A DNA stretch of 64,000 nt from Squalus acanthias (Eukaryota). The stretch's first letter is position 1, and each line of letters opens with the position of its first letter. The position numbers and the translations under genes are program-made. Positions 7,423-62,988 of this stretch are shown one piece after another. The stretch covers positions 76,942,001 through 77,006,000 of the forward strand of contig CM059438.1 of assembly GCA_030390025.1 (NCBI GenBank), in the 5' to 3' direction. The notes beneath the pieces were generated by a model. It saw only the letters and a list, made by a program, of their open reading frames with translations, did not search any database and was not told the DNA's origin.

Positions 7423-10400
7423 TAAGAACATAAGAAATAGGAGCAGGAGTAGGTCATAAGGCCCTTCGAGCCTGCTCCGCCATTCAATAAGATCATGACT
7501 GATCTTCTACCTCAACTCCACTTTCCCGCCCTATCCCCATATCCCTTGATTCCTTTAACATCCAAAAATCTATCGATCTTCGCCTTGAATATACTCATCT
7601 ACTGAGCAATCCATAGCCCTCTGGGGTAGAGAATTCTAAAGATCCACAACCCTCTGAGTGAAGAAATTTCTCCTCATCGCAGTCCTAAATGACCGACCCC
7701 TTATCCTGAGACTCTCTAGACTCTCCAGCCGGTGAAAACAGCTTCTCAGCATTTAGCCCTCTAAGAATTTTACACATTTTAATGAGATCACCTCTCATTA
7801 TTCTAAGCAGGCCCATTCTACTCAATCTCTCCTCACAGGACAACCCTCTCATCCCAGGAAACAATCCAGTGAACCTTTGTTGCACTGCCTCTAAGGCAAG
7901 TATATCCTTCCTTGGGTAAGGAGACCAAAACGGTACACAGTGTTCCAGATGTGGTCTCACCAAAGCCCTGTACAATTGTAGTAAGACTTCTTTACTCTTA
8001 TACTCCAACCCCCTTGCAATAAAGGCTAACATATAATTTGCCTTCCTAATCATTTGCTGTACCTGCATGTAAACTTTCTGTGATTAGTGTACAAGGACCC
8101 AAAATCACTCTGAATCCCAATCTAACTAGTATCTCACCTTTTAAAAAATATTCTGCTTTTCCATTCTTGCTACAAAAATGGATAATTTCACACTTCCCCA
8201 CATTATACTCCATCTGCCACCTTCTTGCCCAATCACTAAACTGGTCTATATCCCTTTGCAGCCTCCTGGCGTCCTCCTCACCGCTTACTTTGCCACCTAC
8301 CTTTGTATCGTCGGCACACTTGGATATACTGCACACGGTCCCCTCATCTAAGTCATTGATATAGATTTTAAATAGCTGAGGCCTAAGCACTTAGCCTTGC
8401 GGCACACCACTACTGACACACTGCCATCCCGAAAATGACCCGTTTTTTCCTACTCCCTGTTTACTATCCGTTAACTAATCCTCAATCCATGCTAATAATG
8501 ACCCCCAATCCCATGAGCCCTAATCTTCTGTAACAACCTCTTTTGTGGCACCTTATCGAATGCCTTCTGAAAATCCAAATATACTACATCCACTGGTTCC
8601 CCCTTTTCTACCCTGCTAGTTAAACCCTCAAAAAAACTCCCAATAGAATTGTCAAACACAATTTCCCTTTCATGAAACTGTGTTGCCCTTACCTAATCAT
8701 ATTGTGATTTTTCCAAGTGCCCTGTTACCACGTCCTTAACAATAGATTCGAGCATTTTCCCTACTACTGATGTCAAGCTAATTGGCCTATAGTTCCCTGA
8801 TTTCTCTCTCCCTCCTTTCTTAAACAGCGGGGTTACATAGAATCAGAGAATGGTTACAGCACAGAAGGAGGCCATTTGGCCCATCGAGCCCATGCCGGCT
8901 CTCTGCAAGAGCACTTCAGCTAGTCCCACTCCCCCGCCCTTTCCCCGTAGCCCTGCAAATTTTTTTCCTTCAGGTACTTATCCAGTTCCCTTTTGAAAGC
9001 CACAATTGAATCTGCCTCCACCACCCTTTCAGGCAGTGCATTCCAGATCATAACCACTCGCTGCATAAAAAAGTTTTTCCTCATGTCGCCTTTGGTTCTT
9101 TTGCCAGTCACCTTAAATCTGTGTCCTCTGGTTCTCAACCCTTCTGCCAATGGGAACAGTCTACTCGGTCTAGACCCCTCATGATTTTGAACACCTCTAT
9201 CAAATCTCCTCTCAACCTTCTCTGCTCTAAGGAGAACAACCCCAGCTTCTCCAGTCTATCCATGTAACTGAAGTCCCTCATCCCTGGAACCAATCTTTTC
9301 TGCACCCTCTCTAAGGCCTTCACACCCTTCCTAAAGTGCGGTGCTCCAGTTGTGGCCGAACCAGTGTTTTATAAAGTTTCATCATAACTTCCTTGCTTTT
9401 GTACTCTATGCCTCTATTTATGAAGCCCAGGAATCCCGTGTGCTTTTTTAACTGCTTTCTCAACCTGCCGTGCCACCTTCAATGATTTGTGCACATATAC
9501 CCCCTCCCAGGTCTCTCTGTTCATGCACCCCTTTTAGGATTGTACCCTTTAGTTTATATTGCCTCTCCTTGTTCTTCCTACCAAAATGTATCACTTCACA
9601 CTTTTTTGAGTTAAATTTAATCTGCCACGTGTCCACCCATTTCACCAGCCTGTCTGTGCCTTCTTGAAGTCTGTCACTGTTCACTATACTTCCAAGTTTT
9701 GTGTCATCTGCAAATTTTGAAATTGTGTCCTGTACATCCAAGTCATTAATATATATCAAGAAAAGCAGTGGTCCTCGTACTGACCCCTGGGGAACACCAC
9801 TGTATATCTCCTTCCAGTCCGAAAAACAACCGTTCACTACTACTCTCTGTTTCCTGTCACTTAGCCAATTTTGTATCCATGCTGCCACTGTCCCTTTTAT
9901 TCCATGGGCTTCAACTTTGCTGGTAAGCCTATTATGTGGCACTTTATCAAACGCCTTTTGGAAATCCATGTACACCACATCCACATTGCCCTCATCAACC
10001 CTCTCTGTTACCTCATCAAAAAATTCAGTCAAGTTGGTTAAATACGATTTGCCTTAAACAAATCCGTGCTGGCTTCCCTTAATTAATCCACACTTGTCCA
10101 AGTGACTGTTAACTTTGTCCCTGATTATCGTTTCTATAAGCTTCCCCACTACCAAGGTTAAACTGACTGGCATGTAGTTGCTGGGTTTATCCTTACATGC
10201 TTTTTTGAACAAGGGTGTAACCTTTGCAATTCTCCAGTCCTCTGGCACCACCCCCCGTAGCTAAGGAGGATTGGAAGATTATGGCTAGTGCCTCCGCGAT
10301 TTTCTCCTTAACTTCCCTCAGCATCCTAGGATGCATCCCATCCAGTCCTGGTGACTTATCAACTTTAAGTACAGACAGCCTTTCTAGTACGTCCTCTTTA

Positions 10401-11340
10401 TCAATTTTTATCTCAGCCAGTATCTCCACTACCTCTTCTTTCACTATGACATTTGCTACCTTCCAATCCACTGGGACCGTTCTAGAATCTAGGGAATTCT
10501 GGAAGATCAAAACCAATGCATCCACTATCTCTGTAGCCTCCTAGGATGTAGGCCATCAGACCCAGGGGTTTGACGGCTTTTAGTCCCATTAATTTCTCCA
10601 GTACTTTATCTTTACTAATATTAATTACTTTAAGTTCCTCACTCATTAGACCCTTGGTTTCCCACAATTCCTGGTATGTTATTTGTGTCTTCTACTGTGA
10701 AGACAGAAACAAAATATTTGTTGAACGTCTCTGCCATTTCCTTATTCCCCATTATAATTTCTCCTGTCTCTGCCTCTAAGGGACCCATGTTTACTTGCTA
10801 ATCTCTTCCATTTTACATACTTGTCAAAGCTCTTATAATCTGTTTTTATATTTCTTGCTAGTTTACTCTCATTTTATTTTCTCCCTTTTTATCAATTTCT
10901 TGGTCATCCTTTGCTGATTTTTAAAAACCCTCCCAATCCTCAGGCTTACTACTCTTTTTGACAACATTGTAAGCCAATTCTTTTAATCTAATACTCTATA
11001 GTTAGCCATGGCTGTACCACTTTCCCAGTGGCGTTTTTATTCCTCGATGGAATTTTTATTTGTCGAGAATTATGAATGATTTCTTTAAATGTTTGCCATT
11101 GCTTATCTACAATCATATCTTTTAACCTAATTTCCCAATTAACCTCAGCCAGCTCACCTCTCATACCTCTGTAATTGGCTTTGTTTAAATTTAAGACCCT
11201 AGTTTCGGACTTAACCACATCGCTCTTAAACTTAATATGAAATTCCCTCATATTATGATCACTCTTCCCCAGAGGATCCTTTACCATAAGGTTACTAATT
11301 AACCCTGTCTCATTACACAATACTAGATCTAAAATAGCCT
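7423..11340 (-). mobile_element. Degenerate CR1 LINE (outer element, same family as 1-2090), interrupted by a nested CR1 at 8839-10448
   Basis: 3' tail TAAGAACATAAGAAATAGG at 7423. Minus-strand ORFs: 7685-8068 ([16 protein letters not shown]), 8046-8390 (YINDLD..KCADDTK), 10482-10667, and 10988-11320 (LGKSDHN, endonuclease end). Confidence 0.93.
8839..10448 (-). mobile_element. 5'-truncated CR1 LINE of a second subfamily nested in the outer CR1
   Basis: Has its own 3' tail (CATAGAATC..CAGCACAGAAGGAGGCC). RT ORF 9460-10032 contains YMDFQKAFDKVPH, GVPQGS and KFADD. ACAT occurs at both junctions (8835-8838, 10449-10452), where the outer element is split. Confidence 0.92.
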
Positions 11341-14469: not shown

Positions 14470-15790
14470 AGTGCAGATCAGTCAGCATCTCTGGAGAAAG
14501 ATCAGTTCAGTTTTGGGTGAAACCCTTCATCGGACCCAAAACAAGGACAAGTATTTAAATAGAATCAGAACAGGGGAAGGGGGGCAAAAAAAGCAAACAC
14601 ATGAGAGAGAAAGTATGTGCTTAAAAGAAAAGCAGGAGATGGTTAGATGGATGATATGATCTTTATAACAGATGATGGCATGAAGCTTAATAAAAGAAAT
14701 TAAGACATAATGGGAATTAACTGAGACAGTGCGAGGTAAATCCGGTCTAAAATAGAAGCTAGTCAAACAAGGCAAGGTCTGACGACCTGAATAACAGTCC
14801 AATACCAAAGACGCAGACTCCTCTGCCAGCACTCTTTTGAGACCAAGGATCTCAACCCAAGCACCAACCTTCTTTCCCCCTAATGTTGTTTGATCTCCCC
14901 AGTGTAGAGGAGTCTGCATCTTGAGCAGTAAATACTAGATTAGAGGGAGTACCTGAATTAGAGGAAGTACTTCCTCCATTCCAGTATACTGTATTTGCTG
15001 CTTACAGTGCAGCGTCTTGCACACTGGGAAGACTGAACACAGATTAGGTAACCGCTTTGCCGAACATTTCCATTCTGGCTGCAAGTGTATCCCTGAGCTC
15101 CCTGTCGCCTGCCACTTGAATTCCCTGTCTCGCTCCCACTATGACCTTTTTGTCTTTGGCCTTCTGCACTGTTACATTGAAGCTCAGTTAATGCTCAAGT
15201 AACAGCATATCTTTTTCTTGGGCACTTTGCAACCCTCTGGACTTATCATTGATTTTAATAATTTCAGACGTTAACTATACCTGACACTGTTTATGGTGGG
15301 AGTAGCTGGCAATTTGGGATGAGTGTTGTTAGCATTGGGAGTGGGGAGGCAGATTGGCACTTGAATTGCATTTCTTCTTTGGGCTGTTGGATCCTGCTAT
15401 TTTGCCAGCTTTCCCCCTCTCGTCCTCTCCCCTCTTCTCTCAGCCCCTCCCTTCTCCTACCTCCCATTGCTTCAGCTATTCATACGTTCTTTGTCTCTGT
15501 TGTGCCGTTAATTCCTTTTATTGCGCTTCATCACATGTCTGTTGTAAGAATCATCTCGGCCATCTAAATGTCTCCTGGTCACTCCACCTATACTTCCTTT
15601 TTAGTTTTTTTTTTTGCTTTTGTTCTGATTCTATTTAAATAATTGTTCATTTTTTCAGTTTGAATGAAGGGTTGCACCCAAAACGGGTCTGTTCTCTCCA
15701 CAGATACTAACTAGCCTGCGGAGTGTTTCCAGCATTATCTGGGGTTTTTTTTGTTGATTTTCAGCATTTGCTGTTTTTTGCTTTTTATTT
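14470..15790 (+). mobile_element. Penelope-like retroelement remnant (GIY-YIG endonuclease fragment, 3' end, inverted terminal segment)
   Basis: 14984-15202 translates VYCICCLQCSVLHTGKTEHRLGNRFAEH..LPVACHLNS..GLLHC, a decayed Penelope GIY-YIG domain. Segments ~14470-14535 and ~15660-15720 are inverted copies of the terminal sequence. Confidence 0.75.
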
Positions 15791-18600: not shown

Positions 18601-19620
18601 AAGTCACTTAAGGTAACTCAAGACTTCTTCGAAATGGAGGGCAAGTTTGGGTAAATACAGAGGGACATTAAACAAAGAAACAGGCTCTACACAAACATAA
18701 GAGTTTGCGTGGAACAAAAACTGCAAGCTGAAAATAACTTTTCCCCAGTCTGTTTTCTTAGCAGAAGTATGTTTAGCTGATTTGTCTTTACATAAAGCTT
18801 TCTGTTTTTCTTGGCAACTAGTCAATCTCCTGTGGATTTGCACACAGGGTGGTCAGAACCAAGTGCACTCTTCTGGTGACGTGGTTTTAGAGGGTAGGGA
18901 TATTTGGACCAAGTTGCACAGATGTAATTCTGACTCTCTTTTAAAATGAAACATTCTTTCCTTATTTTTATATATATTCCATTATAAATTCCTTTGTCGA
19001 CATTTATAATGGAAACTGCCTTTGTAATCTTGCCATACTGTTATTACACCCACCTATCAATGTTGGTACTGCTGCACCTCTACAGGGTGGAAGATATACT
19101 TCAGTGTGACAAGCTTGCATAGACTGTTTTTCATTATCAATGTTCACAAAGGAATTTATCATGCAAAACGTTGGCTGGAAGTGCGCCCAGACATTAGATT
19201 TTTAATATATCATATATATGTTTTATTTTTCCCCTTGTGAAACCTGAAAGATGTCAGTTCTGTTTACTTAACAGTGAGTGTGTCTGTAACATGTTCGATG
19301 AGCTTGATGGGTACAAATGATCTTTTGCTTAAAGAAATGGTCAGTGCCAAATTTGTATTGAGGTTTGGCTCTATTTGTGGGCAGGGTGACAGAAAATACA
19401 TTTTGTAGTTGCACAAGCTAACTTTGTGGCCTTGGAAATCTACAGGGGCATACCTTAATTTGTTCTCTTCATTCCGGGAATCACGTAAAGATTTTGCTCT
19501 GAGTTAGTTTAGATGGGGTGGGGGAGAGAAAGACACCTTGAATTCACAGAATAAGCTATTAATAAAATTGTTGCTCTGCTGCAGTTCTGTACGATGTGAT
19601 GCATTATTTATAATAAATAT

Positions 19621-20062
19621 CAGCTGCGGCTCAGTGGGTAGCACCCTCGCCTCTGAGTCAGAAGGTTGTGGGTTCAAGTCCCACTCCAGGAACTTGAGCA
19701 CAGAATCTAGGCTGACACTCCAGTGCAGTGCTGAGGGAGCGCTGCACTGTCGGAGGTGCCGTCTTTCAGATGAGACGTTAAACCGAGGCCCCGTCTGCTC
19801 TCAGGTGGACGTAAAAGATCCCATGGCACGATTTTGAAGAAGAGCAGGGGAGTTATCCCTGGTGTCCTGGCCAATATTTATCCCTCAACCAACATAACAA
19901 AAACAGATTATCTGGTCATTATCACCTTGCTGTACGCAAATTGGCTGCCGTGTATCCCACATTACAACAGTGACTCCACTTCAAATAGTACTTCATTAGC
20001 TATAAAGCGCTTTGAGACGTCTGGTGGTCATGAAAGGCGCTATATAAATGCAAGTCTTTTCT
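19621..20062 (+). mobile_element. Near-full-length DeuSINE (SacSINE1-like)
   Basis: tRNA-like head with A box (GGCTCAGTGGG) and B box (GGTTCAAGTCC). Deu-type core (GTCCTGGCCAATATTTATCCCTCAACC). L2-like tail AAAGGCGCTATATAAATGCAAGTC. Confidence 0.88.
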
Positions 20063-55990: not shown

Positions 55991-56410
55991 GATCTTTTAC
56001 GGTAACATGCCTCAAAGCGTCAGCTTTTTCTTTTGCATTCAACATTAGTTACAATAAACTTACAAATTTGGAATTTTCCAGTTCGCTATTGAGCTTTTTT
56101 CATAGTTTACCATTTTCTATTTAATCCTTTTTATATAAAAACAGACCACTTTTGTGTTGTTGGAACATTACTGTTTAATTCTGTTGATCTAAGGGATGTG
56201 CTTTCGCTTCATTCATTAGCTACAAGATTGTTTTTAAACAGAACTTTACGTCTTCCTTTTTTACTTTGTATTAAGATAGTGAAAACCCTTGCTTGATGCT
56301 GGTGGAGTGCCAAGGTATTTTTTGCGAAACTCTAATTTTACAATCTGAAGTTTTTAAATTTTCAAAAAGATCAACGAAAAGCACAAATGTAACTCAGCAG
56401 CATTATTCAA

Positions 56411-56830
56411 AAAAGACTTGCATTTATGTAGCGCCTTTCACGACCTCAGGATGTCCCAAAGCACTGCACAGCCAGTGAAGTACTTTTGAAGTGTAGTCAC
56501 TGTTGTGGAAACGTAGCAGCCAATTTGCCTCAGAGCAAGGTTCCACAAACAGCAGATAATAATGACCAGATAATCTTTTTTTTTAAGTGATGTTGGTTGA
56601 GGGATTAACATTGGCCAGGGCACCGGGGAGAACTCTCCTGCTGCTCTTCTTGGAATAGTGCCATGGGACCTTAAACTGAGGCTCCCTCTGCCCTCTCGTT
56701 AAACGTCTCATCCAAAAGACGGCACCTCTGAGTGTTGGCCTCGATTTTGTGCTCAAGTCTCTGGAGTGGGGCTTGAGTCCACAACCTTCTGCCTCAGAGC
56801 TGAGTGTGCTACCACTAAGCCACGGCTGAC
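56411..56830 (-). mobile_element. DeuSINE (SacSINE1-like), near full length
   Basis: Reverse complement of the head, Deu core and tail of 19621-20062, with internal deletions. Confidence 0.85.
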
Positions 56831-56914
56831 AACAAGCTTTAAGTGCTAACAAACATCTGGAAGTAGAGACAAAATGGACTAAGATGCAACAGTCCAAAGG
56901 TAATTCATCCTTAA

Positions 56915-57148
56915 TATAAAAGAAAATGCTGGAAATACTCAGCTGGTCAGGCAGCATCTGTGGAGCAAGAAACAGAGTTAAAGTTTCAGGTCGATGATCT
57001 TTCGGTCAAAACGGTTTTGATGAAAGGTCATCGACCTGAAACGTTAACTCTGTTTCTCGCTCCACAGATGCTGCCCGACCTGCTGAGTATTTCCAGCATC
57101 TTCTGTTTCTATTTCAGATTTTCAGCATCTGCAGTATTTTGCCTTTGC
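56915..57148 (+). mobile_element. Palindromic short Penelope-type element with 13-bp TSD
   Basis: Arms ~56921-57012 and ~57014-57104 are inverted copies. Flanked by AATTCATCCTTAA at 56902-56914 and 57149-57161. The right arm resembles the 3' end of the Penelope remnant at 15660-15790. Confidence 0.85.
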
Positions 57149-58763
57149 AATTCATCCTTAAATGGTTTCAAAACAGAGAAGGATTTAGAAATTGCTATGA
57201 TGCGCTCAGCTTCTAGTTTCTTTAGAGCCCCTTGCATCACTTGCTGGTAGGTGAAATTTTCTAATTAGACTTTGTCTATTTAGTGCAATAAATCATACAG
57301 CTGTAGTGGGAATTGTGCTAAATAATCTGTGCAACAGTTTAAAATTGGGTTTGGAAAGTAAACAAGTTGAATCATAAAACATTTCCCATTTAGTTTTTAC
57401 CCACATTTGTAAAACAAAATAGATTGTATAATTTCAGGCAGAGACTAGTTAATATTCTTTCTATGGAAACTTTATAAAATTTGGATGAATAATGTTTGCA
57501 ACATATATTTGCTTTTACAATTGGGCACTCAAACTAGATTTGAAAATCATGTAAAAAAATTCCCCTTATATGTCTCAATTTTATTTAGCATTTTGAAAAA
57601 CAATACAAACAAAATGGAACCCTGATCTCATGCAAACTTTGTTTGAAAAATACAGCTGACATTGTTGGCATAATTTAGATTACAGCATTTGGATGCCGTG
57701 CCAAATGTATGCTGATAGTGTACACAATTTAGAAAATGGCAAGTTAAAAGGAATTACCACAAATATTTAATCTCCTCGCAATTTGTGAAACTTAACTTCA
57801 TAAACGTTAAATCCGTTTTACTTAACAGTTCAAGCATCAGTCTTACTGTGAAGGCTATCTCACCAAAGTTAAACTTTAAAAGAAGTTAAAGTGAGACACT
57901 TGAGGTTCACCACTGTAATGTCCCATCGGTGTAACAATGGTACCAGCTCCTCTCGCCCACCCCACCCCCGGCAACAAAAATAAACTGAATAGGTAACTTA
58001 GCAGCATATTTGTGGTCTGAATTTCCTTCCACTCACCTAGATATTAGTCAGACAGAGAGCACTTAAAATATAAGCAACTGGCCTGCATCTCTATATTCAG
58101 ATCATTGTAATAGGTCTCCCTGGTGCACGCCTACCCCCTTGTGCTTGGAAGCAGGGGAGGAAAGTCCACCATTCCTGTAGGCCCAAGATGCCTGCAGCAA
58201 TGGTTATGACTGCCAGCTGCAGGGCCTTATGGTTGCTGCCCAAAAACAACAGCCAGAAAATCTGCAGCCCCCAAAGATCCTGGTTTGAAAAAAAAACCTG
58301 CATCTTTTCGGCTGCCCCTTCACTGATCCTCTGATCTGAGTGGGACTGCTCACAAAGCCTAAGGCCCACGTGCTGTCAGCACACCGAAGAAAGGGTGTCA
58401 GTCCAAAGAGGACGCAGGACTAAGCGGTAGGAGGTGCCATAACCTAACACCCGCCTCATTAGGTTGGTATTTCCATGTTTGTGCCACGCAAAGGAAGCAG
58501 AAAACGAGCTCATTGGTCCCAGCTCTTTGATTTACCTCTGCTTTGCGCCCAGGTAGTAAGTGTTCAGCGGACACAAAGCAGAGGAAAATTGTCTCTGGAT
58601 TTCTTGTTGCATTGCAGAACGTTGGAAGTATTCTGTTCAGTTGACTTTCAATGAGATACAGCAAGCAGTTTTTTAAATTAATGAAGCCTGGTATTGTAAT
58701 TTATCAACAGATGTGTGTGGAGATTAAGCGCAGTCACAAAGCAGCGATTACTTCAGTTACAGC

Positions 58764-62897: not shown

Positions 62898-62988
62898 ATT
62901 GCTGGAAATTTTAAATGAAACATCAAATGCCAGAAATACACATCAGCATCTGGAAAACAAAAGAATAGGTTAACATTTCAGGTGTAGC
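62898..62988 (-). mobile_element. Decayed Penelope-type terminal fragment
   Basis: GCTGGAAAT..AATGCCAGAAATAC..CAGCATCTGG..GTTAACATTTCAGGT resembles the left arm of 56915-57148. Confidence 0.5.

Follow-up and report, generated by a model that had tools for sequence, protein, structure and literature searches.

A short fold-back insert in the Squalus acanthias genome consists of two head-to-head pLTR ends of an abundant autonomous Penelope-like element

Inverted pLTRs, a tail at one end only and target site duplications (TSDs) have been described for Penelope-like elements (PLEs) (PMC3846280, PMC8557442). In the EN+ PLE Pen2a_Av of Adineta, a 5'-truncated copy lies inverted and head-to-head, with a 30-40 nt tail at one end, a TSD, and TATA and Inr-like motifs in the pLTR (PMC3846280, PMC8557442 Fig. 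2). The minimal hammerhead ribozymes (HHRs) of metazoan PLEs have a 4-bp helix I, a bulge between positions 9 and 10.1 and a palindromic 15.2-16.2 segment, occur as thousands of solo motifs, and have already been mentioned as pairs on opposite strands 100-700 bp apart (PMC4209133). For the Poseidon element PAc of Anolis, two internal reverse-transcription start sites bound the tail, both target strands are cut and extended, the substrate is uncut RNA, HHR-cut RNA was not seen as template, and a dimeric form is predicted for the protein (PMC11167929). Finally, non-LTR retrozymes are non-coding elements with a type I HHR, a relation to PLE pLTRs and long TSDs, arranged as direct tandem repeats that give circular RNAs (PMC7229834, bioRxiv 10.64898/2026.07.22.740005). 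The locus analyzed here resembles each of these systems in part.

The window, a stretch of 64,000 nt, contains a 234-bp insert (56915-57148) bordered by an exact 13-bp direct repeat, with the left TSD at 56902..56914 and the right TSD at 57149..57161; the rough chance of such a repeat is about 3e-6, allowing +-3 nt per border. Element positions are counted from C3 of the HHR core as 0 (57017 in the window), which puts the predicted cut between +28 and +29. The left arm (56915..57012, minus strand) is an inverted, tailless PLE pLTR end from position -3 to about +97, and the right arm (57014..57114, plus strand) covers the same positions. Both arms end at -3, separated by one filler nucleotide at the head-to-head junction (57013..57013, given no strand, as are the TSDs). 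The right arm continues into a one-sided PLE tail of about 34 nt (57115..57148, plus strand; positions about +98 to +131), and these final nucleotides have no pairing partner. The inverted arms match over 86 ungapped nucleotides (56918-57003 with 57022-57107; 92% complementary), the pairing extends into the centre, and the RNA is predicted to fold as a single long hairpin (-151.8 kcal/mol; z -22.9, 0/200 shuffles as good). The exact TSD and the inverted arms had been noted in the first-pass annotation, and both were verified.

The same annotation had read the right arm as hammerhead-like, with T for C3, a 5-bp hairpin, GAAA and a palindrome; this motif was located at 57017-57045. The putative minimal type I HHR spans 57013..57049 on the plus strand, as judged from the sequence, the family form and the architecture given in PMC4209133. 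It comprises stem I (57013-16/57046-49), the core (57017-23, with T for C3), a bulged A (57024), stem II (57025-37, pairing 57025-29 with 57033-37), GAAA and a palindromic ACGT, with the predicted cut after 57045. A decayed copy on the minus strand had been proposed for the left arm, and the alignment places it at 56980..57009, where T at C3 (57009) is common with the right arm and three more core or stem changes are found; the copy has a 1-nt insertion and alterations of stem II and of the palindrome. In its family form, the HHR has the CUGANGA/GAAA core, helices I (AGTT/AACT) and II, a palindromic stem III and an NUH site, in agreement with the minimal type I form that the first-pass annotation had named for Penelope-like elements. 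Helix II has 5 bp here, not 7-8 bp as in the Schistosoma motifs, and the window copy combines U3 with G8 instead of the covariant U3-A8 (PMC4209133). An Rfam scan of the insert gave no hammerhead family at E<=10. Its mir-559 and 23S-methyl matches were far under their gathering scores and are explained by the hairpin alone.

A change of C3 to U impairs hammerhead cleavage. With T at C3 in both arms, the window copy is probably catalytically impaired, as had been supposed from the right arm. There seems to be a subfamily that was mobilised repeatedly despite an altered catalytic core; in the genome (G000), a changed stem II loop (TT) accompanies 19 of the first 100 listed T3 cores vs 4 among about 150 listed intact cores. 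The C3G mutation is known to abolish cleavage, yet such mutants still insert (PMC11167929). A T3+G42 subfamily was considered as the origin of the window copy and rejected, with G42 present in 1 of the 100 first-listed of 218 T3 cores. The two variants common to both window arms would thus stem either from an uncommon template or from conversion between the arms.

In the 3.7-Gb genome, 4543 candidate places for the insert were found, 40 of which were scored, and the thirty best copies align over their full length except at the centre. The repeats flanking these 30 copies vary in length (10-19 nt in 26/30), so that the variable-length TSDs expected of such a family were indeed found. The intact HHR core has 19,677 exact genomic occurrences, as against 0 for the reversed control; the family therefore keeps the core that the first-pass annotation had proposed to look for in a consensus. 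Loci chosen by the core alone mostly run on upstream into common sequence. On this side the unit is continued by coding sequence for a reverse transcriptase (RT; YIDD), a linker of the form CxxxxCxxC and GIY-YIG, as in L061 and other loci, and an ORF start follows downstream of the tail. The HHR-plus-tail unit stands in direct orientation upstream of the parent ORF start (156 exact junctions), and in the autonomous element the tail continues towards this start. Since the unit precedes the parent ORF, each arm of the insert corresponds to the pLTR end of this autonomous element, and the unpaired end of the insert is the PLE tail. The suggested Penelope derivation is thereby confirmed, and the suggested short non-autonomous family gives way to the ends of a full-sized element.

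One locus (L061) displays both arms at greater length, with a 3.1-kb tailless arm and an inverted 2.1-kb tailed arm that encode the RT (YIDD), a CKRRRCNTC linker and GIY-YIG. The GIY-YIG of the parent ORF is recognised by Pfam (E 1.3e-4), and its translations contain the CCHH motif with two internal cysteines, formed by YCIRCSRCGLLYIGET and downstream His residues. The RT motifs were recognised by eye, the Pfam RVT_1 match (E 0.0045) being under its cut-off, and a PDB sequence search with the parent ORF gave 0 matches. A CX2-5CxxC linker between RT and EN marks Neptune/Nematis elements (PMC8557442), and the CKRRRCNTC linker would place the parent in this type. PAc, in contrast, belongs to the Penelope/Poseidon clade and has an ORF that starts in stem II, whereas the shark parent has a long ORF after the tail (PMC11167929).

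Thus the family has the attributes of EN+ PLE insertions: an RT with a C-terminal GIY-YIG carrying the CCHH motif, a pLTR or partial tandem with HHR and tail before the ORF, and an inverted 5'-truncated copy with a one-sided 30-40 nt tail and a variable TSD. MITEs and other DNA transposons, which end in inverted repeats and have a short TSD of fixed length, do not fit, because the TSD length varies, the tail is asymmetric and the parent encodes an RT. The architecture of the insert is therefore already in print, and the insert is one of about a thousand or more such stubs. Compared with Pen2a_Av (PMC3846280, PMC8557442), the arms here are cut to about 100-135 nt and hold no ORF, exact stubs number about a thousand, and the 5' ends pile up at one site.

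The arm ends were analyzed in a sample obtained with a pattern anchored at +50 (19,218 matches), whose first 100 places correspond to 98 loci; 90 loci were left after three that did not align through and five duplicates had been dropped. Like every positional sample in this study, it was drawn from the start of one contig. The 3' ends in the 90 loci are bimodal, at about +97 and +133. An adjacent inverted arm was found in 25 insertions, 23 of them classifiable and two not. A tailed arm is paired with a tailless one in 21/23 (p 3e-5 against 0.5), the remaining two being one tail-tail and one with neither. Both 3' ends also occur in copies that were not flagged as inverted, 33 of these 62 being tailless and 29 tailed, and TSDs were detected in only 9/28 short non-inverted copies (1/28 in the control).

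We consider it probable that the insert, two head-to-head pLTR ends of an abundant autonomous PLE with a 34-nt tail on one of them, arose by twin priming, run-off at the transcription start and end-joining, likely in a single insertion event. The RT-GIY-YIG protein would nick the two target strands with a stagger of about 13 nt, and cDNA would be primed from each nick at internal RNA sites, one at about +97 and the other at about +133; the stretch between these sites corresponds to the tail. The template would be RNA uncut at the ribozyme, either one molecule or RNAs of one source. Short cDNAs would result from run-off where the RNA begins, probably a Pol II start on the initiator-like A at -4, immediately before the hammerhead. 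The cDNA ends would then be joined, likely by end-joining.

One-sided tails can also be explained by snap-back, as proposed earlier: the cDNA primes itself on its 3' end, the other arm is copied from it, and after resolution by the endonuclease a tail is left at one end only (PMC3846280, PMC8557442). This mechanism would account for the tail/no-tail asymmetry, for the near-symmetrical centres of many copies, including the window copy, and for the rare variants common to both arms, which amount to 25 in 30 insertions vs 0.16 per random pair (0/5000 permutations) and which speak equally for twin priming on RNA of one source. The arm lengths argue against snap-back. By hand count, 7/21 insertions have a tailless arm that extends beyond the tailed one on the 5' side by more than 5 nt (up to 421 nt), the tailed arm reaches further in nine, and five are ties. 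In these seven, each arm has sequence that the other lacks, and neither can have been copied from its partner, a result in favour of two separate events of reverse transcription; the same is seen in L061, with its 2.1-kb tailed and 3.1-kb tailless arms. The presence of both 3' ends in non-inverted copies is a further point against snap-back, and we regard it as improbable for the family, although it may have produced some symmetric copies such as that in the window. Twin priming, for its part, extends the in vitro result for PAc to genomic copies: the strict tail/no-tail pairing and the mutually non-nested arms speak for priming twice on an RNA template, and this population evidence bears on the way in which inverted pLTRs and tails of PLEs are formed.

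The 5' ends of the arms are clustered as well. In the first family, 27/90 lie at -7..+1 with the mode at -4, vs 20 in 90 flanking positions (p 1e-16, for a window that, like that of the second family below, was chosen after the data had been seen), and junction microhomology blurs these ends by 1-2 nt. Only 1/90 comes to lie 2 nt or less from the predicted HHR cut, and HHR-cut RNA was rejected as the template, since 5' ends do not accumulate at +29. The A of CCAGTT occupies position -4, with TTAAAA about 31 nt before it. The same position coincides with the helix I boundary and lies behind a splice-acceptor-like tract.

A second PLE family of the same genome (53,240 exact anchor matches), with GIY-YIG ORFs and a minimal HHR that differs in its palindrome (AGCT) and its helices, was found at L016, L119, L163, L174 and L244-L313. 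It has many fold-backs, and its two 3' ends are at about +85 and +121. Among 88 arms from 70 loci, 35 of which extended past the reference, the 5' mode is -7, a position noted before this sample was counted but after a few examples had been seen; 16/88 arms end at -10..-2 vs 22 in 90 flanking nt (p 7e-8). This position is the A of TCACTT; most subfamily references have TATATA about 30 nt before it, an AG is lacking, and the shift of the mode between families is significant (Fisher p 6e-5). We take TTAAAA and TATATA to be TATA-like boxes and CCAGTT and TCACTT to be initiator-like, following the general consensus motifs. The 5' pile-up probably marks the transcription start in both families, at an initiator-like A some 30 nt after the TATA-like box. 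Similar motifs of both kinds have been noted (PMC3846280); in D. virilis, the transcription start lies in the pLTR, but the promoter is reported to be TATA-less (PMC2377424).

The pile-up could instead reflect stalling or drop-off of the RT at the 5' boundary of the HHR, at the U-tract or at a splice acceptor, with twin insertion otherwise unchanged. In D. virilis, helix I is where the intron terminates (PMC4209133), and the first-family mode coincides exactly with the helix I boundary, after a pyrimidine tract and CAG. Further, an extra cap-type G at -4 was seen in 1/8 non-fold-back copies; the excess of G in fold-backs (7/12 in the first family, 6/7 in the second) is confounded by the opposite arm, and a cap-G signature is thus unsupported. 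ORF-linked copies end at the peak in 4/15 cases of one sample and 0/13 of another, many of them extending further upstream, which implies that many templates begin before -4. The second family, however, separates a start from a boundary or a splice site, as its mode (-7) is off its own helix I boundary (-4), lacks an AG and has a clear TATATA 30 nt upstream. In addition, the copies have no common upstream exon, the TSDs of several abut the start with microhomology, and a GT..AG joint at the site is absent among 15 joints listed of 56. Stalling is therefore a rather unlikely source of the pile-up, and a transcription start is the reading that we prefer. Contigs of a guessed RNA type on one locus (L188) have loose ends near -5..+1 and +90..+139, although starts and strand are not readable from contigs. 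The accessible text of PMC11167929 describes no 5' run-off hot spot for PAc, and a search of literature mainly outside the subscription journals, on the 5' pile-up or on short shark fold-backs, returned only the general papers cited. As the peak tracks the initiator-like motif in two families, it offers a cheap and testable prediction of PLE transcription starts.

The first-pass annotation had seen in the insert a retrozyme-like element, that is, a short non-autonomous unit that would be transcribed, cleave itself in dimeric form and retrotranspose as a fold-back. Several observations could be read in its favor: the genome holds 986 exact short fold-backs with both cores intact, the family core is preserved, and the second family keeps the HHR architecture with different helices. 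Some short junctions also recur, since by hand count the first 50 of the 986 short fold-backs include junctions in 6, 4, 3, 2, 2 and 2 copies. These are mostly very short, and the same 50 fold-backs fall into 37 centre-junction classes, the three commonest of which are found on both subfamily backgrounds. Four copies that have two private variants in common have four different centres, and arm lengths are continuous from under 50 nt to 3 kb. Thus fold-backs are made anew at each insertion, across several subfamilies. Short head-to-tail HHR tandems are nearly absent (of 188 cores in the loci analyzed, a single pair on the same strand lies less than 1 kb apart).

The two HHRs of a fold-back are on opposite strands, so that one transcript contains one ribozyme paired to its own antisense. 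In the folding model, the hairpin destroys the hammerhead fold, with a stem II probability of 0 in the fold-back RNA vs 0.88 for the isolated arm. A fold-back is likely a dead end, having no upstream TATA-like box and an RNA whose predicted long hairpin would block folding of the ribozyme. Non-LTR retrozymes differ in being direct tandem repeats (PMC7229834, bioRxiv 10.64898/2026.07.22.740005); the shark insert is an inverted pair that never places two sense HHRs in one RNA and likely does not propagate as a unit of its own. The retrozyme-like reading is largely refuted by these observations, and we give it very little credence.

More speculatively, the stubs could be failed strong-stop products. 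The RNA would be terminally redundant from the initiator to the tail, an RT dimer would prime both target strands from the pair of sites that bound the tail on one RNA, and the run-off cDNA would normally jump to the repeat's 3' copy and so restore the pLTR, in the manner of LTR elements. We consider this extension possible but doubtful; if true, thousands of fold-backs would record PLE integration and the transcript start of each family. There is also a risk in annotation, as PLE hairpins may be mistaken for MITEs, for retrozymes or, as the weak mir-559 match illustrates, for miRNA precursors.

Other repeats were observed in the window and in the genome. An older, more diverged inverted pair of pLTRs from the same family lies at 14478-14703 and 15508-15785 of the window, with 71% arm identity, a tail on the right arm and a decayed HHR core, and another decayed pLTR-end fragment is found at 62900-62946 on the minus strand. 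About 70 bp to the left of the TSD, a dispersed repeat with a tRNA-like head (56408-56830, minus strand) matches 19620-20060 and many other loci; presumably it is a tRNA-derived SINE. The segments 7-2090 and 7423-11109 match each other as large inverted repeats (about 80% identity) and probably represent LINE copies. Finally, the PLE copy at L062:334-3950 is interrupted or partly duplicated around other sequence of about 3.6 kb, in which one ORF, by eye, seems to resemble a Harbinger-type transposase.
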